A stretch of 20,930 nucleotides of DNA from Myxococcales bacterium (GTDB lineage: Bacteria > Myxococcota_A > UBA9042 > JABWCM01 > BTVJ01): contig BTVJ01000114.1 of assembly GCA_045863395.1 (NCBI GenBank), forward strand, positions 1-20,930, given 5' to 3'. The translations under genes were made by a program, and so were the position numbers. Under the pieces are notes generated by a model that made no database searches, had not been told where the DNA came from, and was given only the letters and a program-made list of their open reading frames with translations. How positions within the stretch are numbered: position 1 is the stretch's first letter; each line of letters starts with the position of its first letter. Positions 1,625 to 19,424 of the stretch are shown here, piece after piece.

Positions 1625-6694
<5,070 letters not shown>

Positions 6695-6739: not shown

Positions 6740-6755
6740 AGCATCCACCGTGCCA
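6740..6755 (-). promoter_or_regulatory. sigma54 (-24/-12) promoter for the giant secreted protein gene
   Basis: Minus strand TGGCACGGTGGATGCT vs consensus TGGCACG-N4-TTGCW: one mismatch, exact GG-N10-GC spacing. Predicted start near 6729, ~35 nt before ATG 6694. Confidence 0.75.
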
Positions 6756-6973: not shown

Positions 6974-6989
6974 TGGCACGCCCGGTGCA
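6974..6989 (+). promoter_or_regulatory. sigma54 (-24/-12) promoter for the PqqD/ATP-grasp operon
   Basis: TGGCACGCCCGGTGCA vs TGGCACG-N4-TTGCW: one mismatch, correct spacing. Preceded by an AT-rich patch (6945-6970). Predicted start near 7000, just before RBS AGGAGG at 7012-7017. Confidence 0.75.
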
Positions 6990-7024
6990 AACCACATCGA
7001 CAGGACCTTCCAGGAGGTGAACCC

Positions 7025-7273
7025 GTGCTCGAACACCTGGCCATCAGCGAGAGTGGCTTCCTCTTCGACGCCCGCACCGGGCACACGTACACCCTGAGCC
7101 GCACCGGGGTCTTCCTCGTGCGCGCCCTCGTCTCCGGCGCCTCCACTTCAGAGCTGCCCGGCCGCCTCGCCGCGGACTACGACGTGGAGCCGCCCATCGC
7201 GGCCCGCGACGTGGAGCAGTTCCTGATGCGCATGCGCGACCTCGGCCTGCTGGACACGGAGGACGAGCCATGA
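7025..7273 (+). CDS. PqqD-family / RiPP recognition element (RRE) stand-alone protein, 82 aa
   Basis: GTG start 7 nt after AGGAGG. Sequence GFLFDARTGHTYTLSRTGVFLVRAL...LAADYDVEPPIAARDVEQFLMRMRDLGLL shows the three-strand/three-helix PqqD pattern (YxLxxxG, Y-D-V, D-V-xx-F-L-xx-L-xxx-G-L-L). Confidence 0.88.
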   Translation: MLEHLAISESGFLFDARTGHTYTLSRTGVFLVRALVSGASTSELPGRLAADYDVEPPIAARDVEQFLMRMRDLGLLDTEDEP

Positions 7274-8328
7274 GCCTGACCATCGCCGTCACCGGCCTGA
7301 ACGCCAGCGACAGCCCCGGCCCCGGGGTGCCCGTGATCCGCGCCATCCGCCATGCGGCCAACGGCGAGGTCCGTGTCGTGGGCCTCGCCTACGACCCGCT
7401 CGACCCCGGCGCCTTCATGTCGGGCATCTGCGACGACGTCTACCTGATGCCGTACCCCTCGCAGGGCGCCGACACCCTCCTCGCCCGGCTGCGCGCCATC
7501 CACGAGATCACGCCGCTGGACGTTCTGATCCCCACGCTGGACGCCGAGCTGTCCGCCTGCATCAAGATCGAGCCCGCCCTCCGCCAGCTCGGCATCCGCA
7601 TGGTGCTGCCCGGCGAGGAGCGCCTGCGCCTGCGCGCCAAGGATCGCTTCGGCGAGCTGGGCGAGGCCATCGGGCTCAGCGTCCCGAAGAGCGTGACCCT
7701 GACGGACGCCTCCACCATCCCCAGCCTCGACAAGGACTTCACCTACCCGGTCATGGTGAAGGGGCAGTTCTACGACGCGTGGATCGCGTGGACTCCCATG
7801 GACGTCCACGCCCACTTCGAGCGCGTGCGGGCCAAGTGGGGGCTGCCGGTCATCGTGCAGCAGCACGTCTCCGGCGAGGAGCTGGACGTGGTGTGCCTGG
7901 GCGACGGCGAGGGCGGCCTCGTCGGGTGGGTGCCCATGCGCAAGATGCAGCTCACGGACAAGGGCAAGGCCTGGGGCGGCGTGACCATCGCCGACCGCAA
8001 GCTGACGGCCTTCGTCCAGGACACGATGCGGCGGCTCAAGTGGCTCGGGCCCTGCGAGCTGGAGATGATGAAGACTCCAGATGGGGCCTTCACCCTCATC
8101 GAGATCAACCCCAGGTTCCCGGCGTGGGTGTGGCTCAGCGTCGGCGCGGGCCGCAACCTGCCGTGGGCGCTCGTCCAGATGGCGCTCGGCCACCCGGTGG
8201 ACCCCATGCCGCCCGCCCCCCCGGGCGTCATGTTCCTGCGCCACTCCTTCGACCAGATCTGCACCCTGTCGGACTACGCCGCGCTCACAACCGCCGGCGA
8301 GCTCCACCGCGAGGAGGCACCCCGATGA
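7270..8328 (+). CDS. ATP-grasp ligase (carbamoyl-phosphate-synthase/biotin-carboxylase-like fold), 352 aa
   Basis: ATGA overlap with the upstream stop. Motifs DVLIPTLDAEL, YPVMVKG, PVIVQQHVSGEE, WLGPCELEMM and LIEINPRF (ExNPR metal/phosphate motif). Confidence 0.88.
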   Translation: MSLTIAVTGLNASDSPGPGVPVIRAIRHAANGEVRVVGLAYDPLDPGAFMSGICDDVYLMPYPSQGADTLLARLRAIHEITPLDVLIPTLDAELSACIKIEPALRQLGIRMVLPGEERLRLRAKDRFGELGEAIGLSVPKSVTLTDASTIPSLDKDFTYPVMVKGQFYDAWIAWTPMDVHAHFERVRAKWGLPVIVQQHVSGEELDVVCLGDGEGGLVGWVPMRKMQLTDKGKAWGGVTIADRKLTAFVQDTMRRLKWLGPCELEMMKTPDGAFTLIEINPRFPAWVWLSVGAGRNLPWALVQMALGHPVDPMPPAPPGVMFLRHSFDQICTLSDYAALTTAGELHREEAPR

Positions 8329-9668
8329 AGCAGCCCTACGAGAAGCCGACCATCCTGCGCCATGTGGGCGGGCTCGCAAACAAGCACGGCCGCGGCCCGA
8401 GCCGCCGCTCCATGGGGCGCATCGACGGGGTGCGCGTCGAGGAGCTGGTCGCCCGCTACGGGAGCCCACTGTACGTGTTCAGCGAGCACACGCTGCGCCG
8501 CGCCTACCGCGAGCTTCACCGCGCGTTCTCGCTGCGCTACCCCAAGGTGCAGCTCGCGTGGTCGTACAAGACCAACTATCTGGACGCCATCTGCCGCGTG
8601 TTCCACCAGGAGGGCGCCTGGGCCGAGGTCGTCAGCGAGATGGAGTACGACATGGCCCGCCGCCTGGGCGTGCCGGGGCACCAGATCCTGTTCAACGGCC
8701 CGTACAAGCCGCAGGCGGCGCTGAAGACCGCCATCGACGAGGGCGCGCACCTGCACATCGACCACTGGGACGAGCTGTGGGCCATCGAGCGCATCGCGCG
8801 CGAGTCCGGCCGCCCCGTCCCGGTGACCATGCGCGTCAACATGGACACGGGCATCTACCCGCGGTGGGACCGCTTCGGGTTCAACCTGGACAGCGGCGAG
8901 GCCCTGGACGCCATCCGGCGGATGCACGCCGGGGGGCACCTCACCCTCGACGGCCTGCACGCGCACATCGGCACCTACATCGCGTCCACGGAGGCCTATG
9001 GCAAGGCTGCGAGCCGCCTGGCGGACCTCGCCCTGACCGCGCGCCGGGAGCTGGGCGTCCGGGTCCGCAGCATCGACCTCGGCGGAGGGTTCGCGTCGAC
9101 GGCCACCCTGCACGCCCAGTATGCGCCGGGCGCCGACTCGTCCCCTGCCGTCGACCTCTACGCCGAGGCCATCTCCAACGCGCTCCTCGGGGCCGGCTTC
9201 GCCCCGGAGGACCTGCCGACCCTGATGCTGGAGACCGGCCGCGCGCTCATCGACGAGGCCGGCTCCCTGATCACGTCCGTGGTCGGCAACAAGCGCCTGG
9301 CCAACGGGACGCGGTCCATCATCGTGGATGCGGGGGTCAATGTGCTGTTCACGTCCTTCTGGTATCGCCACGAGCTGCTCCCCGCCCATGACCGGGGAGG
9401 GCTCCTCGAGGAGACCGTCGTCTACGGGCCCCTGTGCATGAACATCGACGTGGTGCACCCCTCGACCCTGCTGCCCCCCCTCGACCCCGGCGATCTGCTC
9501 GTCGTGCGGCCCGTCGGGGCGTACAACATCACCCAGAGCATGCAGTTCATCAGGCTGCGGCCGGCGGTGGTGATGGTGGGCGAGGGCCAGCAGGTGGATC
9601 TGCTCCGCGACGTGGAGACCGTCAACGATGTCAAGCGCAACGAGCATGTCCCTGAGCGCCTCCGCTGA
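8325..9668 (+). CDS. Fold-type III PLP-dependent decarboxylase (Orn/DAP/Arg decarboxylase family, LysA-like), 447 aa
   Basis: True start is ATG 8325 (GAGGAGG RBS, ATGA overlap). Motifs SYKTN (PLP Lys), FNGPYK, MRVN, RFG, GLHAHIGT, IDLGGGF, ETGR, VDAG, GPLC, GAY. Confidence 0.9.
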   Translation: MKQPYEKPTILRHVGGLANKHGRGPSRRSMGRIDGVRVEELVARYGSPLYVFSEHTLRRAYRELHRAFSLRYPKVQLAWSYKTNYLDAICRVFHQEGAWAEVVSEMEYDMARRLGVPGHQILFNGPYKPQAALKTAIDEGAHLHIDHWDELWAIERIARESGRPVPVTMRVNMDTGIYPRWDRFGFNLDSGEALDAIRRMHAGGHLTLDGLHAHIGTYIASTEAYGKAASRLADLALTARRELGVRVRSIDLGGGFASTATLHAQYAPGADSSPAVDLYAEAISNALLGAGFAPEDLPTLMLETGRALIDEAGSLITSVVGNKRLANGTRSIIVDAGVNVLFTSFWYRHELLPAHDRGGLLEETVVYGPLCMNIDVVHPSTLLPPLDPGDLLVVRPVGAYNITQSMQFIRLRPAVVMVGEGQQVDLLRDVETVNDVKRNEHVPERLR

Positions 9669-11751
9669 CGCCCGCGGGTGGGTCGCAGCCGGCCTGCGCC
9701 AGGTGCTGGAGGCCTACGCGCAGGTGCTCTTCGGGCGCAGCCTGCTCGCGGGGCTCCTCTTCGCGGCGGCAACCTTCGTGGTCCCGGAGCACGGCCTGGC
9801 GGGGCTCCTCGGGCTGCTGGCGACCAACGGGTGGGCGCGGGCGCTGGGTCGCCCAGACGCCCACATCCGAGAAGGGTACTACGGCTACAACGGGCTCCTC
9901 GTGGGCCTCGCGCTCGGCAACCTGTTCCGTCTGACGCTGCCCTTCGCGGTGCTCCTCGTCGCCGTGAGCCTGCTGACCGTGGCGGTCGCCGCGGCGCTGC
10001 GCAACGTGAGCGAGCGCCTGATCGGCGTGCCCGTCCTGTCGCTGCCCTTCGTGCTCGCCACGTGGGCGGCGCTCCTCGCCGCCCGGCGCTTCGGCGCCGT
10101 TGAGATCGCCATCGACCCGGTGCTGGCCGGTGTCCCGCTGGGCGTCGCGGCACCCATCGTCGAGACCTTCCTGCGGTCGCTCGGGGCGGTGTTCTTTCAG
10201 CTCGGTGTGCCGTCCGGCGTCCTGGTCCTGGCGGGGCTCCTCGTCCAGTCCAGGTGGGCGGTCATCCTCGCGATCCTGGGCTTCGCGGCGGGCGCGGCAG
10301 TCTACCAGGGCCTGGGCGGCGCGGACGCGGACATCTCGGCCTCCCTCATCGGCTTCAACTTCATCCTCGCGGCCATCGCGCTCGGCGGCGTGTTCGTGGT
10401 GCTGGGGCCGGCCTCCCTCGGCCTGGGCGCGGCCGCCGGGGTGCTCGCCGCCGTCCTGTCCGCGGCGACCATGGCGGCGCTGGCCCCCCTGAACCTGCCG
10501 GTGCTCGCGTTCCCCTTCGTCATCACGACCCAGGCGCTGATCTTCGCGCTTGCGCTGCGGGTCAATGGCGGACGGCCCCGCCTCGTGGAAGGTCCCCCCG
10601 CGACCCCCGAGGTGAACCTCGCGCGGGCCGTGTTCCGGGCGCGGCGCTACCCGGACCCGTCCGTGCCCGTGCTCCACCTGCCGGTGGTGGGGCGGTGGAA
10701 GGTCACGCAGGGCGTCGCCGGCGCCTTGACCCACCAGGGGCTGTGGGCCCACGCCTGGGACTTCGAGGTGGCCGGCGAGGACGGCTCCACCCACCGGGGG
10801 GACGGGGCGCGCCGCGAGGACTGGCTCGCCTGGGGGATGCCGGTATTCGCGCCGGCCGACGGGCGGGTGGTGCGGGTGGTCAACCACCAGGAGGACAACC
10901 CGGTGGGGGAGGTGGATGTCGCGAGCAACTGGGGCAACCTCGTGATCCTGTGGCACTGGGGGGACGTCTACTCCGCCGTCTGCCACCTGCAGAAGGGGTC
11001 GGTGGCCATCCGGGAGGGGGAGGTCGTGGCGCGCGGGCAGCTCCTGGGGCGCGTGGGCAGCTCGGGGCGGTCGCCGGTCCCCCACCTGCACTTCCAGGTT
11101 CAAGGGTCGCCGGAGGTCGGAGCCCCCACCCGCCGGGCGGAGCTGCTGCACTACGTCGAGGACGGGCGCTGGGTGGCCCACGGCGTGCCACGCGAGGGCG
11201 ATCTGGTGGCTCCGCTGGCCGTCGATGAGGTGGCACGGCGGGCCGTGTCCCTGGCCCCCGGGGTGGAGCTGGTGTGGGACGTGCGGTGGGGCAGCCAGGT
11301 ACGCCAGGAGCGGTGGCAGAGCACCATCGACGCGCTCGGCGGGCGGGAGCTGTCCACCGATGGGGCGCGGGCGCGCCTGTGGGTGGATCAGAGCTACACG
11401 ACGGTGCTGGACTACGAGGGCAGCGGTGACACCCTCCTCGCGGTCTTTGCCCTCGGGGCGGCGCGGGTCCCCCATTCCCTCGCGGGGCGGTGGACCGATA
11501 CGCCTCCGGTGGCGCCGTGGCTCTCCGCGCCGATGCGCCTCGCGCAGGAGCTGCTCCTGCCCTTCGCGGAGGTGGGGGCCGCGCGGACGACCAGCACCCT
11601 TACGGCGGGTGATGGGCTGCGGGTCGTGACCGAGGTGGCAGGTGGCGCGGGGGCGCCGACGCGCGTAGAGATCCGCTGGGTGGACGGCCCCGAGGAGCTG
11701 CGGGCCTGGAAAGGCGACACCCTCCTGGTGGAGGCGAGGAGGCGGCGATGA
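9646..11751 (+). CDS. Urea transporter (UT) domain fused to M23 metallopeptidase and a C-terminal domain of unknown function (~701 aa)
   Basis: UT signatures YAQVLF, GYYGYNGLLVG, PVLSLPF and, in the second repeat, SLGAVFFQ, GFNFIL, PVLAFPF within ~10 hydrophobic helices. M23 motifs VTQG..TH....HAWDF, PVFAPADGRV, WGNLVILWH, CHLQKGS, GxVGSSGRSPVPHLHFQ. Start could alternatively be ATG 9628; the gene overlaps the upstream stop. Confidence 0.88.
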   Translation: MSLSASADARGWVAAGLRQVLEAYAQVLFGRSLLAGLLFAAATFVVPEHGLAGLLGLLATNGWARALGRPDAHIREGYYGYNGLLVGLALGNLFRLTLPFAVLLVAVSLLTVAVAAALRNVSERLIGVPVLSLPFVLATWAALLAARRFGAVEIAIDPVLAGVPLGVAAPIVETFLRSLGAVFFQLGVPSGVLVLAGLLVQSRWAVILAILGFAAGAAVYQGLGGADADISASLIGFNFILAAIALGGVFVVLGPASLGLGAAAGVLAAVLSAATMAALAPLNLPVLAFPFVITTQALIFALALRVNGGRPRLVEGPPATPEVNLARAVFRARRYPDPSVPVLHLPVVGRWKVTQGVAGALTHQGLWAHAWDFEVAGEDGSTHRGDGARREDWLAWGMPVFAPADGRVVRVVNHQEDNPVGEVDVASNWGNLVILWHWGDVYSAVCHLQKGSVAIREGEVVARGQLLGRVGSSGRSPVPHLHFQVQGSPEVGAPTRRAELLHYVEDGRWVAHGVPREGDLVAPLAVDEVARRAVSLAPGVELVWDVRWGSQVRQERWQSTIDALGGRELSTDGARARLWVDQSYTTVLDYEGSGDTLLAVFALGAARVPHSLAGRWTDTPPVAPWLSAPMRLAQELLLPFAEVGAARTTSTLTAGDGLRVVTEVAGGAGAPTRVEIRWVDGPEELRAWKGDTLLVEARRRR

Positions 11752-12986
11752 TCACCCCATGGATCCTGGCGCTGGGCTTCGATGCGCAGATGGCCGCCGG
11801 TCAGGAGCGCCTTGCGGCCGGCGCGTGCGTGGAGGCCGCGACCGCGTACCAGGCGGCGGGCGCCGAGGTCCCGGACGCGGAGGACGCCTGGGTCGGCGCG
11901 CAGCGCGCCTGGCTGTGCGCGGGAGAGTGGGCGAAGGCCGCGAACGCAGGGAACGTCGCCCTGGCCCTGAACCCGCACAACGCCTGGGCGCTGCGGGGGC
12001 TGGGCTACGCGCTGTCCATGACGGGCGACCTCGACGGCGCGCGACGTGCCTACGAGGCGTGCCTGGCCTTGCGGCCCGACGATGGGGAGGCGCGGCTGGG
12101 CCTGGGCTTCGTGCGCGTCGCGCAAGGGGACGTGGACGAGGGCCACGCGCTCTGTCGCGGCGCCGCGAGCGGGCTCACCGTGGGGGATCCCCGCCCCGAC
12201 GAGTGCCTCGCCTTGGGTGGAACCCCGTTCACGTGGGGTGCCGGCGTTTCCGCCACGTACCTCCGCTACACGGACCCGTACATCCTACGCAACGTCTCGG
12301 CCATCTCGCTCACGGCGGGCGTGGACTGGGTTCCCGGTGGCGTCTGGGCCGGAGCCACGCTGAGCGGTTCGGCCCGCAACTTCGACCTTGGCGACTACCA
12401 ACAGGCAAACCCGGTGCTTGGGGGGGCCGTGCGCATCGGCGGCCTCACGATGGGGGTCGCAGGCAGCGTGCTCTTCTCCAGCGAGGACTCCCTGGACCTG
12501 ACGGGTCTGGTCCTCGGGTCCCTCGCCTACCGGGACGGTGCCTTCGGGGCGAGCGTGTCATCGACGACCAGCCTCTACCCGAGCCAGGTCGTGGAGCAGC
12601 TCGACGCCCGCTTCGAGTGGGAGCCGGCGCCTTGGCTGTCCCTGGTCCTCGGGCCGGAGCTGCAGATCATCGACGCCGACGAGCTCCTCGCCAGCGGCTC
12701 CCTGTCCGTGACGGGGCGCCCCCACCCGCGGTTGGCGCTGTTCGCCACGGGACTCGGGGGGCCGCGACGCTGGGCCGTCGATGACGTGCTCTTGAGCGTC
12801 TGGACCAACTCCGACCGGGTCATCGGGGGCTACCGCGTGGGGGTGGACTGGACCCCGTGGGACGTCTTCGGGCTCACCTTGACGTTCCGCCACGACTTTG
12901 GCGATGAGCAGGCGGGGCTCACCCGCGACTTTCAGATCTGGGGCGGCACCCTCGGGGCGCGGCTCTTCTTCCAGGAGGCACCATGA
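11748..12986 (+). CDS. TPR-repeat protein with probable C-terminal outer-membrane beta-barrel, 412 aa
   Basis: AGGAGG RBS and ATGA overlap. TPR pattern ALALNPHNAWALRGLGYAL...GDLDGARRAYEACLALRPDDGEARLGLG. The last ~250 aa are alternating amphipathic strands ending GGTLGARLFF. Confidence 0.75.
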   Translation: MITPWILALGFDAQMAAGQERLAAGACVEAATAYQAAGAEVPDAEDAWVGAQRAWLCAGEWAKAANAGNVALALNPHNAWALRGLGYALSMTGDLDGARRAYEACLALRPDDGEARLGLGFVRVAQGDVDEGHALCRGAASGLTVGDPRPDECLALGGTPFTWGAGVSATYLRYTDPYILRNVSAISLTAGVDWVPGGVWAGATLSGSARNFDLGDYQQANPVLGGAVRIGGLTMGVAGSVLFSSEDSLDLTGLVLGSLAYRDGAFGASVSSTTSLYPSQVVEQLDARFEWEPAPWLSLVLGPELQIIDADELLASGSLSVTGRPHPRLALFATGLGGPRRWAVDDVLLSVWTNSDRVIGGYRVGVDWTPWDVFGLTLTFRHDFGDEQAGLTRDFQIWGGTLGARLFFQEAP

Positions 12987-13597
12987 AGACGCTTGCAGTG
13001 TTGCTGCTGACCCTCACCCTCGTGCGCCCGGCCGCGGCGGACGGACCGGCGGACATCCCCGACCTGTTCGCGTCGTCCTTCGCCTACGAGACGACGGGCG
13101 ACCTGGACCGCGCGCTCAACGACGCGCTGCGCGTGGTCCGCGTCGAGCCATCCCACTACGTCGCGACCCTGCGCGCGGGTTGGCTCTACTACTTGAAGGG
13201 GCGGTATGGGGACTCGGTGGACCTCTACCAGAAGGCCGTGAAGCTGGCGCCGAACGCTGCGGAGCCCAAGCTGGGGCTCATGCTCCCCCTGATGGCTGCG
13301 GGGCGTTGGGGTGAGGCGGAGGCCGTGGGGGAGCAGGTGCTGGCCAAGGCGCCCCGAAACTACCTGGCGGCGAGCCGGCTCGCCTACTGTGCGTTCTCCC
13401 AGGGGCGGTGGAAGGTCGCCGAGCAGCGCTACAAGGAGGTGCTCGACGACTACCCGGGGGACCTGGAGATGATGCTGGGGCTCGCCTGGACGTGGGCCAA
13501 GCAGGGCAGGGCCGCGGAGGCCAAGGGGCTGTTCCAGAAGGTGCTGGTCATCCGCAAGGACAACGTCAACGCCCGCGCCGGGCTCGACTCGTTGTAG
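12983..13597 (+). CDS. Secreted/periplasmic TPR-repeat protein, 204 aa
   Basis: AGGAGG RBS and ATGA overlap. Signal peptide MKTLAVLLLTLTLVRPAAA. Tandem TPRs: LRAGWLYYLKGRYGDSVDLYQKAVKLAP; RLAYCAFSQGRWKVAEQRYKEVLDDYP; GLAWTWAKQGRAAEAKGLFQKVL. Confidence 0.88.
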   Translation: MKTLAVLLLTLTLVRPAAADGPADIPDLFASSFAYETTGDLDRALNDALRVVRVEPSHYVATLRAGWLYYLKGRYGDSVDLYQKAVKLAPNAAEPKLGLMLPLMAAGRWGEAEAVGEQVLAKAPRNYLAASRLAYCAFSQGRWKVAEQRYKEVLDDYPGDLEMMLGLAWTWAKQGRAAEAKGLFQKVLVIRKDNVNARAGLDSL

Positions 13598-13648: not shown

Positions 13649-14890
13649 ATGAGCCCCCCGGCCACGCCGCGCACCTGCCGCGTCTACGAGCCCTCGCTGG
13701 TCACCTCGCAGGCGACCGAGGAGGAGCCTCGCGCGGGGGGGCTGGATCGCGCCGCCATCGAAGCCATCTGGAGGGCGGTCGAAGCCGCCTACCGGACCGG
13801 CCTCTACCCGGCCATGGCGCTGTGCCTGCGCCGCAGGGGCCACGTCGTCCTGGACCGCGCCATCGGGCACGCCCGCGGAAACGACCCCGGGGATGCGCTG
13901 GAGGTCCCCAAGGTCCCCGCGACTCCGGCGACCCTCTTCAACGTGTTCTCCGCGTCGAAGATGGTCATGGCCATGCTCGTGCACCTGCTGTCCGAGCGGG
14001 GCCTGGTGCACCTGGACGACCTGATCGTGCGGTACATCCCCGCCTTTGGTCGTCACGGCAAGGAGCGCACGACGATCCGCCACGTGCTGACGCACCGGGC
14101 CGGGATCCCGTCGGTGCCGCCCGGCGGGGTGGACGTCGGGCTCCTGTCCGATCCGCGGGCGACCGTGGAGCTGCTCTGCGACGCCCGCCCGGTGTGGGTC
14201 CCCGGGCGTCGCCTCGCCTACCATGCGCTGACCGGCGGCTACGTGCTGGCGGAGATCGCCCGCGCGGTCACCGGCGTGGACGCTCGGACGCTGCTTCGCC
14301 GTGAGATCCTGGAGCCGCTGCGGTTCGACCACTTCGGCTATGGGGTTCCCGCTGCGGAGGTGGGCAGCGTCGCCCTCAACTCCTTCACGGGGCCGCCGGC
14401 AGGGCGCCTCGCGGGTGGGCTGTTCCGCAAGGCGCTGGGGGTCGGCTTCGAGGAGGCCGTCGCGCTCTCCAACCACCCCAGCTTCCTCACTGGGCTGGTG
14501 CCGTCGGGCAACGTCATCGGCACGGCCAACGAGGGGTCGCGGTTCATGGAGCTGCTGCTGCGCCGTGGCGCTCTGGATGGCGTCCGGGTGTTTGCCGAGC
14601 GGACCATTCGGGAGGCGCTCCGCGAGCAGTCCTACCTGGAGATGGACCTGACCATGGCGCTGCCCGTGCGGTATGGCATGGGCTTCATGCTCGGCGGGCG
14701 CATCCTGTCGCCCTACGGCATGGGCACGCGAAACGCCTTCGGGCATCTGGGCTTCTCCAACGTCGTGCTGTGGGCCGACCCGGACCGCGACATCAGCGCC
14801 TGCCTCATGACCAGCGGCAAGCCGTTCCTGGCGCTGGGCGAGGTGCGCTGGTACGGCGTCATGCAGACCATCACGCGCACATGCGAGTGA
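13649..14890 (+). CDS. Serine hydrolase, beta-lactamase/class C-esterase family, 413 aa
   Basis: FSASK (SxxK), TIRHVLTHRAG, PGRRLAYHAL (catalytic Tyr), AFGHLG (HxG triad). No signal peptide. Confidence 0.9.
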   Translation: MSPPATPRTCRVYEPSLVTSQATEEEPRAGGLDRAAIEAIWRAVEAAYRTGLYPAMALCLRRRGHVVLDRAIGHARGNDPGDALEVPKVPATPATLFNVFSASKMVMAMLVHLLSERGLVHLDDLIVRYIPAFGRHGKERTTIRHVLTHRAGIPSVPPGGVDVGLLSDPRATVELLCDARPVWVPGRRLAYHALTGGYVLAEIARAVTGVDARTLLRREILEPLRFDHFGYGVPAAEVGSVALNSFTGPPAGRLAGGLFRKALGVGFEEAVALSNHPSFLTGLVPSGNVIGTANEGSRFMELLLRRGALDGVRVFAERTIREALREQSYLEMDLTMALPVRYGMGFMLGGRILSPYGMGTRNAFGHLGFSNVVLWADPDRDISACLMTSGKPFLALGEVRWYGVMQTITRTCE

Positions 14891-15675: not shown

Positions 15676-17349
<1,674 letters not shown>

Positions 17350-17710: not shown

Positions 17711-18670
17711 ATGCGTGTCGCGTTCCTCCTGCTGTTGCTCTCGCGCCTGGCCGTGGCGGCGCCAGCCCCGCTCACCACCGAGGCAGCGGCTGCGCTCGCG
17801 GCCATCACGCCGGACCCGAAGCCCAAGGAGCTGTCTGCCAACGCCCACTTCCTGGTGTCCGACGAGAAGCGCCACGACCTGTTTGCCCGCGCCATCGACG
17901 GGGTCGGGGGCATGCTCGTGGGGGTTGGGACGGACCAGGTGTGGCTCCTGGCGGCCTGGGCCAGGAGCGAGGTCGTCATCCCCATGGACTTCGATCAGCT
18001 CGTCGTGGACGTCCAGAGGGCCTACGGCGTGGCGTTTCGGGCAGCGCCGGGTCCTGCGGAGTTCGTGGCGTGGTGGACGCTGCCCGAGGACGCCGCGATG
18101 GCGACGGCAGCATCCGTGTGGGGGCTCGAGGAGCAGGCCTCGGCGCGGCGTGGCTTCCGAGCGGCCCGAGCGATGGTGCGCAGGAAGCTTGCGGCCACCG
18201 TCGCGCTCCATGAGCGCCGGGGCATCCGGTCGTACCTGAATGACCAAGCGCAGTACGATCACCTGGCGGCCCTGTGGGCGGGCGGCCGTGTCCATCCCGT
18301 GCGGGGGGATCTGACGGCGAAGACCACGATGCGCCAGATTGGCGAAGCGTCTATCGCGCTCGGGGTGCCGGTGCGCGTGCTCTACCTGTCCAATGCGGAG
18401 AAGTACTTCCCCTACTCCAAGCAGTTCAGGCAGAACGTGCTCGGGCTGCCCTTCGACGCACGGACGGTCGTGCTGCGTGCCCAGGGCCGCGGAGAGGGCA
18501 ACGGGGTGGAGGACGACGGCTTCTACATCTACGAGGTCCAGACCGGTGAGAGCATGAGGGCGTGGCTCGAGTCTGGCAAAGCCTGGAACGTCCACGTCCT
18601 GCATCGCCAGCGCCGCAAGACCGACGTGGACGGTCTGTTCCTCATCGACTCCGTTCCCCCGTCGAAGTAG
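17711..18670 (+). CDS. Secreted hypothetical protein with Rossmann/SAM-binding-like motifs, 319 aa
   Basis: ATG 17711 with GAGGTG upstream; signal peptide MRVAFLLLLLSRLAVAA. Motifs GGMLVGVGTDQ, IPMDFD, PVRGDL, VLYLSNAEKY occur in class-I methyltransferase strand order. Confidence 0.75.
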   Translation: MRVAFLLLLLSRLAVAAPAPLTTEAAAALAAITPDPKPKELSANAHFLVSDEKRHDLFARAIDGVGGMLVGVGTDQVWLLAAWARSEVVIPMDFDQLVVDVQRAYGVAFRAAPGPAEFVAWWTLPEDAAMATAASVWGLEEQASARRGFRAARAMVRRKLAATVALHERRGIRSYLNDQAQYDHLAALWAGGRVHPVRGDLTAKTTMRQIGEASIALGVPVRVLYLSNAEKYFPYSKQFRQNVLGLPFDARTVVLRAQGRGEGNGVEDDGFYIYEVQTGESMRAWLESGKAWNVHVLHRQRRKTDVDGLFLIDSVPPSK

Positions 18671-18740: not shown

Positions 18741-19424
18741 ATGGCGCTCCCCTGGACCGTGATCGAGACCGTGCCCACCGAAGAGGGGCCGCTGGAGCTC
18801 CGCCGCCGCGGTGATCGGGACTTCTTGATCATGCTCGGGCCGCTCGTGCTGATGAGCAGCCGCGCACATACCTCCGAGGCCGCGCTCGGTGAGCTGGGGT
18901 GCCGCCACCTGCGCGGGCGGGCGGGGGCTCGTGTGCTGGTCGGCGGGCTGGGCATGGCCTTCACGCTGCGGGCTGTGCTGGACGTGCTGGGACCGGACGC
19001 GCGGGTGACCGTCGCCGAACTCAACCCCGTCGTGGAGGGATGGTGCCGTGGGCCGCTCGCGGGGTTGACCGGGGCGGCCGTCGCGGACCCGAGAGTGGCC
19101 GTGCGCATCGCCGACGTGGCCAAGGTGATCCGCGACGCACAAGGGTGCTACGACGCCATCGTGCTCGACTTGTACCGCGGGCCGCACCCCCGCACGGACC
19201 CTCGCGGAGACCCCCTGTACGGGAGCCGCGCCATCGAGAGGGCGCGGGCGGCCCTGCGGCAAGGCGGCGTCCTCGCGGTGTGGGGCGAGGTCTACGACGC
19301 AGCGTTCGAGGCGCGGCTCAAGGCTGCTGGCTTCGTCGTGTCGGGGGTGCGTCCCGGGCGGGGGCGCCAGCACGCGGTGTTCGTGGGCACGCTGCCAGCG
19401 CCGGCCGGTGCCGCCTCGCGATGA
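18741..19424 (+). CDS. Spermidine-synthase-like class I SAM-dependent transferase, 227 aa
   Basis: LMSSRAHTSEAAL, RVLVGGLGMAFT (motif I), VTVAELNPVV, IADV, YDAIVLDLYRGP, ALRQGGVLAVW. Confidence 0.82.
   Translation: MALPWTVIETVPTEEGPLELRRRGDRDFLIMLGPLVLMSSRAHTSEAALGELGCRHLRGRAGARVLVGGLGMAFTLRAVLDVLGPDARVTVAELNPVVEGWCRGPLAGLTGAAVADPRVAVRIADVAKVIRDAQGCYDAIVLDLYRGPHPRTDPRGDPLYGSRAIERARAALRQGGVLAVWGEVYDAAFEARLKAAGFVVSGVRPGRGRQHAVFVGTLPAPAGAASR

Follow-up and report, generated by a model that had tools for sequence, protein, structure and literature searches.

A conserved bacterial cassette joining an RRE, an ATP-grasp ligase, a leader-tailed PLP decarboxylase and a urea-channel fusion: a candidate tethered ligation-and-decarboxylation line

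In closthioamide biosynthesis, CtaD and CtaF are reported to build beta-alanine chains on a peptidyl carrier protein (PCP) by repeated Asp loading and decarboxylation; CtaF ignores free Asp, and a PCP lies close to 95% of CtaD homologues (PMC7183216). Decarboxylases of the FslC clade (SbnH, AcsE, MccE and BtrK) are likewise described as acting on acylated or carrier-bound amino acids (PMC7857480). A separate body of work concerns the recognition elements (RREs) of RiPPs, peptides that are made on the ribosome and modified after translation. Discrete RREs of lasso peptide pathways bind a [Y/W]xxPx[L/V/I/F/A] motif (PMC13381572, PMC12710340), and in the LPP system the residue 15 positions past the Tyr (Y-16 to T-1) has been modelled at the catalytic centre of the partner enzyme (PMC13381572). 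Here we describe a six-gene cassette on the + strand (positions 7025–13597) of a 20,930-nt stretch of DNA, the window, which is one whole contig (BTVJ01000114.1) of the 8.8-Mb genome of a Myxococcales bacterium (GCA_045863395.1). We propose, at what we judge to be an even chance, that the cassette is a carrier-tethered line for ligation and decarboxylation, its carrier being the decarboxylase's own N-terminal tail.

Six + strand open reading frames (ORFs) were verified at 7025–7273, 7270–8328, 8325–9668, 9646–11751, 11748–12986 and 12983–13597. ATGA overlaps are exact at 7270, 8325, 11748 and 12983, as is a 23-nt overlap at 9646–9668, and AGGAGG stands 7 nt ahead of the GTG start at 7025. The six genes, these overlaps and a sigma54-type site upstream had all been put forward in the original prediction, and all were confirmed. 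Pfam matches over the cut-off identified the products as PqqD (E 5.7e-12), ATPgrasp_Ter (1.7e-8), Orn_Arg_deC_N with Orn_DAP_Arg_deC (1.8e-29 and 1.9e-13), UT with Peptidase_M23 (1.5e-56 and 1.7e-15) and, in genes 5 and 6, tetratricopeptide repeats (TPRs). Among the six proteins only the RRE reached an NCBIfam cut-off (TIGR04353, 36.8 bits versus 35). Under routine database names the decarboxylase is a diaminopimelate decarboxylase (DAPDC) or alanine racemase, and the ligase a carbamoyl-phosphate synthase. Judged from the ORFs, the overlaps and the conserved gene order, the six joined genes are an operon.

A scan of GTDB with the ligase gave 339 confirmed relatives, the best 80 of which were used as loci; these 80 carry names from Myxococcota/Deltaproteobacteria, Desulfobacteraceae, Spirochaetota and Bacteroidota. 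Counts were made on 180 loci (the 80 from GTDB, 20 regions from the phylum of this genome and 80 metagenome loci), with 30 short loci and L202, which has a fragmentary ligase, excluded. For each gene the count is limited to loci with enough flank; related loci and some duplicates are among them, and the counts are therefore not independent events. We refer to loci with a single ligase as type I and to those with a tandem ligase as type II. In type I loci the RRE lies upstream in 150 of 150 cases, and the decarboxylase was found in 144 of 145, the urea transporter (UT) fold in 121 of 121, M23 in 111 of 112 and the small TPR gene in 83 of 86. Using a profile whose training set drew in part on candidates picked by position, we detected the barrel gene in 71 of the 74 type I loci that were informative; in nine of these it lies upstream. 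Type II loci carry the RRE (15/15) and the decarboxylase (17/17) and lack M23 (0/13); a SIR2 domain replaces it on the UT C-terminus (all six proteins tested gave Pfam matches, at E 9e-40 to 2e-10). Overall, the ATP-grasp gene stands beside an alanine-racemase (AR)-fold PLP (pyridoxal phosphate) decarboxylase in 161 of 162 informative loci (144/145 type I, 17/17 type II). The sole exception among the 145 type I loci, L160 (7371–8671), has RRE and ATP-grasp and is followed by neither a decarboxylase nor a channel gene. Nearly all informative loci, from several phyla, keep the order RRE, ATP-grasp, decarboxylase, urea-channel fusion, which bears out the earlier suggestion of a coupled unit shared between phyla. 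The ligase turned up in 47 of the 401 genomes sampled from the same phylum and in 26 of 301 of the Maribellus phylum. Cultured, non-pathogenic carriers of the cassette include Maribellus luteus (L036) and Mariniphaga anaerophila (L051); no plasmid record matched the tandem ligase. The earlier claim that the cassette has no described counterpart also stands, in that a full-text literature search, with subscription journals outside its reach, returned no description of it. A supplement of PMC12710340 held no match.

The first gene (7025–7273, +) encodes a discrete, lasso-B1-like adaptor of the RRE/PqqD family (PF05402; 82 aa). Its nearest solved relatives are TbiB1 (5V1U), TfuB1 (6JX3) and 9X90. 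Two RRE residues, D62 (kept in 165 of 168) and F66 (invariant in 54), match the pocket that binds the leader Tyr. In our own mapping from a structure-relative alignment, D62 and N/S25 correspond to PbaB1 Q79D/G42N, changes that let PbaB1 take Tyr leaders (PMC13381572). The decarboxylase carries about 30 extra N-terminal residues ahead of its LysA fold, and this tail holds a leader-like recognition motif, Y5-E-K-P8-T-I10 (8337–8354, +). A [YWF]xxPx[ILVMF] motif was found in 200 of 200 decarboxylase tails, 199 by the first pattern and the last with Phe at +5. When the RRE was modelled with the full-length decarboxylase, the complex scored 0.69 and the best of three controls 0.00; the mark used for such predictions is reached by 116 of 157 solved complexes and by 2 of 215 mismatched pairs. 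The runs shared at least 68% of contacts, the predicted local distance difference test (pLDDT) value of the partner was at least 79, and the predicted interface on the decarboxylase was confined to residues 2–13.

A single RRE of this kind is encoded in the same genome, and the full N-terminal motif YxxPxI-x9-K occurs in a single ORF, the decarboxylase itself. Searches for a separate precursor gave 30 short ORFs in this genome that fit a looser pattern, none like a conserved precursor, and no recurrent small gene among the neighbours of 80 loci. Lasso-leader hidden Markov models run on 12 tails gave no NCBIfam match and one weak Pfam match (PF19397, E 0.051). One representative, P0308, is a fusion of RRE and ATP-grasp; a search for longer RRE fusions, a weak test, gave one irrelevant match. 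The original prediction had taken the PqqD/RRE protein for a peptide binder. That assignment fits the lasso-B1-like RRE seen here; what had been missed is the likely ligand. On the predicted complex and the conserved motif, the RRE very likely binds the N-terminal tail of the decarboxylase.

Lys20 of the decarboxylase (8382–8384, +) lies 15 residues after the motif Tyr. In distinct tails, Lys is found at +15 in 152 of 156 and at +15 or +16 in 155 of 156. Among 15 type II tails it is at +15 in 14 and at +16 in one, while most positions between motif and Lys vary. We consider this Lys a candidate acyl carrier because its spacing from the RRE motif is constant and places it at the position that the LPP RRE presents to the active site of its partner; acylation of Lys20 by the ATP-grasp enzyme is, in our estimate, likely. 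Motif and spacing also resemble those of LPP and lasso leaders, where the RRE presents a position to a peptidase, and the weak PF19397 match of one tail points the same way. The tail could then be a RiPP precursor fused to the enzyme, one that the ATP-grasp protein modifies and that M23 cuts near Lys20, with the peptide exported. However, the enzyme that stands in for M23 in type II loci is a sirtuin, which is unable to cleave a peptide backbone; the Lys is not followed by a variable core with conserved acidic partners; making a single product per enzyme molecule would be costly; and the UT pore is narrow. We regard a fused precursor as very unlikely.

The second gene (7270–8328, +) encodes an ATP-grasp ligase of 352 aa, PF15632/PRK12767-like, that retains K124, K164 and E278-x-N280-P-R282. 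In tandem ligases N280 and R282 are retained by the second domain in all 25 cases; degeneration is frequent in the first (N280 kept in 15 of 26). Matches of the ligase in the PDB are CarB-like; a single-sequence PDB search with it returned no match. The third gene (8325–9668, +) encodes an FslC-like, AR-fold PLP decarboxylase of 447 aa in which K82, H212, E303 and C371 are kept in 157 of 157. Its active-site loop reads C-M-N-I-D in type I and C-M-Q-x-D in type II, and so resembles C-M-Q-H-D of FslC rather than C-E-S-S-D of DAPDC. FslC is also the nearest characterised decarboxylase (PDB 7KH2, E 5e-61), with a score below the family cut-off (NF041039, 225 bits versus 500). We rejected a housekeeping LysA: TIGR01048 scores 221.8 versus a cut-off of 297.9, the loop differs, and the genome has a separate LysA-like gene, with G-P-V-C-E-T-G-D, on another contig (C20). 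Natural fusions of ligase and decarboxylase occur (P0274, P0421); a third, P0016, was set aside because its junction is garbled. These data agree with the original reading of the pair as following BtrJ/BtrK-like logic, in that an ATP-grasp enzyme is paired with an AR-fold decarboxylase, the nearest solved one being FslC. A motif screen of ORFs below 220 aa in 210 loci, some of them short, for an acyl or peptidyl carrier protein gave two matches, neither carrier-like.

The relationship to FslC also suits a simpler arrangement in which the RRE serves only as a scaffold, holding ligase and decarboxylase together to channel a free small molecule by FslA/FslC logic; Lys20 would then be structural or substrate-binding, and M23 or the sirtuin would trim the product ahead of export through the UT. 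FslC itself uses a free acylated amino acid, the fusions P0274 and P0421 bring the two enzymes together naturally, P0274 has Arg in place of Lys, and the UT filter fits small solutes. Such a scaffold would not account for a Lys whose distance to the RRE motif is fixed while its neighbours vary, and which sits at the position that RREs present to a partner active site; the sirtuin, moreover, points to an acyl-lysine on a peptide. We consider the scaffold arrangement unlikely.

Gene 4 (9646–11751, +) encodes an inner-membrane fusion of 701 aa with a UT fold (residues about 9–334), a zinc-dependent M23 domain (about 340–520) and a beta-rich C-terminal domain (524–701), modelled with a pLDDT of 93.6 and a predicted template modelling score of 0.89. 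The UT part matches urea transporter structures at Z 39 (root-mean-square deviation 2.1–2.8 over 308–317 aligned residues), and the M23 part matches M23 domains at Z 13–15. The last 180 residues or so gave middling LolA/vitellogenin-like matches within the 701-residue model (Z 8.4–9.0), and neither profile nor structure searches assigned this domain to a family. In the UT, whose topology and filter roles we take to be those of known urea transporters, the four filter aromatics and both Asn are kept and the two central Thr give way to smaller residues (one to Ser in 98 of 109, the other to Ala/Ser in 91 of 109); the UT equivalog TIGR03441 scores 142 versus a cut-off of 274.6. The M23 zinc ligands and catalytic His (H363, D372, H447, H480 and H482) are present in 109 of 109. 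Because no hydrophobic segment intervenes between the last UT helix and M23, and because Lys and Arg are richer on the C-terminal side of the UT in 110 of 110 (mean 10.0 versus 3.1, with the sides set by the topology we assume), the M23 domain is predicted to be cytoplasmic, very probably so in our view. This makes a role on peptidoglycan or muropeptides unlikely, and we rejected a periplasmic peptidoglycan function on the topology prediction and on the NAD+-dependent sirtuin that holds the same place in type II.

Sirtuins strip acyl groups off lysine, and M23 enzymes cut aminoacyl-epsilon-amine cross-links. From what is known of the two families, an acyl-lysine is one bond that both could cleave, and the sirtuin in place of M23 therefore points to an N-epsilon-acyl-lysine intermediate. 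When 17 type II UT ORFs were inspected for sirtuin motifs, nine looked intact by our reading (several of them near-identical pairs), four were degenerate (among them L133 and L138), three were cut by contig ends and one stopped after the UT.

A sirtuin is also a typical eraser, and the cassette could instead be a switch, in which the RRE-guided ATP-grasp enzyme sets the activity of the decarboxylase by acylating Lys20, and the mark is erased by the UT-fused M23 or sirtuin on a signal received through barrel, TPR and UT sensor, with no export. Channel folds serving as sensors exist (a 'Sensor Amt protein' is among the structure matches), type II UTs are divergent (4 of 16 match the type I UT profile), and genes for surface lipoproteins or cargo of the type IX secretion system (T9SS) frequently flank the cassette, their kind varying by lineage. 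A switch, however, leaves unexplained why the loop is FslC-like, of the kind that serves tethered or acylated substrates. Biosynthetic pairs of a ligase and an AR-fold decarboxylase working on a carrier are known, and a switched decarboxylase would need a separate free substrate, for which no pathway genes travel with the cassette. Like the scaffold, the switch seems to us an unlikely explanation.

Gene 5 (11748–12986, +) encodes TPRs (residues 4–158) followed by a 14-stranded, YaiO/OmpG-like outer-membrane beta-barrel (162–409), as seen in an AlphaFold2 model with a pLDDT of 95.1. The barrel has no Pfam match. BcsC was the top Foldseek row (E 5e-11) at a low TM of 0.39; the best barrel matches were OmpG, FadL and CymA (Z about 20), and YaiO was the top Atlas family. 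A literature search on YaiO gave nothing specific. The signal-peptide-like start of gene 5 (11748–11810) is short and weak here and clear in many homologues. Gene 6 (12983–13597, +) encodes an all-TPR protein of 204 aa with a signal peptide, probably periplasmic. The original prediction had seen in the TPR and barrel the hallmark of polymer secretion of the PgaA/BcsC/AlgE type. The model confirms TPR and barrel, and the comparison with that type does not hold, since the barrel has 14 strands and is YaiO/OmpG-like; known polysaccharide export barrels have 16 or 18 (PMC12141448). That uptake barrels of 14 strands (OmpG, FadL, CymA) are the top structural matches would suit the reverse direction, with barrel, TPR and UT importing a small amide or amine for processing inside, and the sigma54 promoter could then reflect nitrogen control. 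Uptake leaves both the RRE–tail–Lys arrangement and the ATP-consuming ligase unexplained, and we think it most improbable, even more so than a fused precursor.

We therefore return to the carrier-tethered line, for which the following scheme may be drawn. The RRE is predicted to dock the YxxPxI motif of the decarboxylase tail, whereupon the ATP-grasp enzyme would load an amino acid onto Lys20 and the PLP site would remove CO2 from the tethered amino acid. Loading and decarboxylation may be repeated to give an oligomer, a step that we find possible and rather doubtful. The UT-fused M23 or sirtuin would then cut the product off, and the UT pore, TPR and barrel would carry it out, a passage we favour slightly. 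By analogy, the substrate might be a dicarboxylic amino acid, for example Asp or Glu, attached by the carboxyl group of its side chain, and on the models of CtaD/CtaF and BtrJ/BtrK the product units might be beta-alanyl or 4-aminobutyryl. The basis of the scheme is in sequence and comparison: the operon and its conservation, the motif, the fixed Lys, the intact active sites, the absence of a carrier or precursor from our searches, and the exchange of M23 for a sirtuin. Taken to its furthest extent, the scheme would yield a protein-primed, nylon-type polyamide, poly-beta-alanine or poly-4-aminobutyrate, grown on the decarboxylase lysine by repeated ligation and decarboxylation and exported; the chain would be freed by the channel-tethered M23 or sirtuin and pass the urea channel, TPR rail and 14-strand barrel to the surface. 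We regard this polyamide form as unlikely.

Several observations weigh against the tethered line. The tail of L194 has no Lys, and P0274 has Arg at that position, which fits a structural basic residue. The score of the RRE complex may reflect memory of solved lasso complexes, and thus likeness instead of binding, and the evidence from RRE–ligase fusion is one sequence that could be an artefact. The aromatic slot of the UT pore fits small solutes and may not pass a chain. Of the 13 complete type II sirtuin domains, four look degenerate in their motifs, as does one truncated domain, and one UT ORF ends ahead of the domain, which suggests that the release domain is inactive in some cases; a sirtuin would also spend one NAD+ on each product it frees, a price that suits regulation better. 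Finally, the barrel went undetected in 17 type II loci, many of which are short, and in three of the 74 type I loci; a single very long TPR protein is often present in type II.

Upstream of the operon lies a sigma54-type -24/-12 site (TGGCACG-N4-GTGCA, 6974–6989, +), with an exact TGGCAC-N6-TGC at 6974–6988. Within the window alone such a site is no better than chance (14 one-mismatch matches versus 9.45 expected). Across related loci, a site of at least 9/11 precedes the RRE in 31 of 165, compared with 2 of 165 control stretches, and rpoN is encoded in the same genome. In three of four runs, contigs from RNA libraries start at 7018, 7019 (two studies) and 7030; a single contig covers 7018–9147 with zero mismatches. 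These starts are a weak hint of a transcript start, as carry-over of DNA in the libraries is possible; gaps in coverage are uninformative, and depth was not used for ranking genes.

The gene that follows (13649–14890) encodes a LipE-like hydrolase of the beta-lactamase family by Pfam and NCBIfam matches. It was considered as a cassette member and rejected, as the 80 GTDB loci have no homologue of it. Divergent from the cassette, 1625–6694 (-) encodes a Cys-rich protein of 1689 aa with many MopE-type (CDGxDDDCDG) and TSP_3 repeats; an exact sigma54-type site precedes this gene at 6741–6755 (-), and RNA-library contigs are deep over its 5' part in two runs. A second MopE-repeat gene, lipoprotein-like, lies at 15676–17349 (-). 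A DUF7790/LIC_10091-like protein (17714–18670) and a spermidine-synthase-like methyltransferase (18741–19424) are unlinked neighbours.

Elsewhere, the neighbours of the cassette include Cys-rich lipoproteins, proteins with a T9SS C-terminal domain and adjoining lipoproteins of 900–1100 aa. These surface-protein neighbours are lineage-specific; examples are the family of L020 (16646–17347; 16 loci), that of L036 (16642–17433; 17 loci) and the neighbours in L147, L155 and L157. Pairs of sensor kinase and response regulator lie upstream in the deltaproteobacterial loci L002, L004, L005, L008, L013, L014 and L032, and a fragment upstream of the cassette in L012 resembles a sigma54 activator; the window has no kinase/regulator pair. 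In a single case, L175 (6678–9026), an MBOAT acyltransferase and a DUF1574-like gene are inserted between the UT–M23 and TPR genes, which recalls polymer acylation of the AlgI/AlgJ type. Type II loci (noted in L131–L134, L138–L141, L148, L159, L162, L177, L192 and L197) often run from a very long TPR gene through RRE, tandem ATP-grasp and decarboxylase to the UT–sirtuin fusion. In L138 an extra gene of about 200 aa without a Pfam match lies between RRE and tandem ligase, and L133 and L137 have a similar gap. A second, stand-alone SIR2 gene adjoins the cassette in L177; L192 has a similar ORF, and L159 an alpha/beta hydrolase.

If the tethered line is correct, the cassette would show that an RRE can recognise a leader attached to an enzyme of the same pathway and not to a RiPP precursor. 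It would also supply a version of butirosin and closthioamide chemistry in which lysine takes the place of the thioester tether, and would give urea-channel folds joined to amide hydrolases a role. Should the polyamide form hold as well, it would represent a class of secreted biopolymer made without carrier protein, non-ribosomal peptide synthetase (NRPS) or glycosyl synthase.

Compared with described systems, the enzymatic core is closest to closthioamide CtaD/CtaF/CtaE and butirosin BtrJ/BtrK/BtrI, which have the same pair of ATP-grasp enzyme and AR-fold decarboxylase (PMC7183216, PMC7857480). The likeness lies in the gene pairing and in the proposed logic of load, decarboxylate and repeat. 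In contrast to these pathways, no phosphopantetheine carrier was found in our screen, and an RRE with a Lys tail stands in its place, so that the tether would be an amide and not a thioester, and release would fall to the channel-fused M23 or sirtuin. FslA/FslC (FigA/FigC) of the rhizoferrin route, together with SbnH, AcsE and MccE, provide the nearest decarboxylase and the C-M-x-x-D loop. The cassette enzyme differs in scoring below the FslC family cut-off, in its added leader tail and in having no NIS (NRPS-independent siderophore) synthetase, of which none was seen among recurrent neighbours, and no exporter of the major facilitator superfamily.

The recognition module has its counterpart in the lasso B1 RREs (TbiB1, TfuB1, PbaB1) and in LppB/LppA/LppS of the LPP system. 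It shares with them a discrete RRE, the YxxPx[ILV] motif, the Tyr-binding Asp, predicted pairing of beta-strands and a key residue 15 past the Tyr (PMC13381572). Here, however, the motif is borne by a 447-aa enzyme, our searches found no separate precursor, and the residue at +15 is Lys, not Thr; neither cassette genes nor recurrent neighbours include a B2 or SpI-like leader peptidase, a cyclase or a kinase. Urea transporters (dvUT, UT-A, UT-B) have the same whole fold, the four filter aromatics and both Asn, whereas here the two central Thr are replaced and a C-terminal M23 or sirtuin is fused. The M23 domain itself has the zinc ligands and catalytic His of peptidoglycan endopeptidases and differs in its predicted cytoplasmic location. 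With synthase-dependent polymer export (BcsC, PgaA, PelB, AlgK/AlgE) and with YaiO barrels, the cassette has TPR and beta-barrel in common; compared with polymer export it has 14 strands instead of 16–18, a UT fold as the inner-membrane partner and no glycosyltransferase synthase gene among its six. Altogether, the cassette lacks defining features of the lasso/LPP, CtaD/BtrJ, FslC, LysA and polysaccharide export systems, and appears to work like parts of each.

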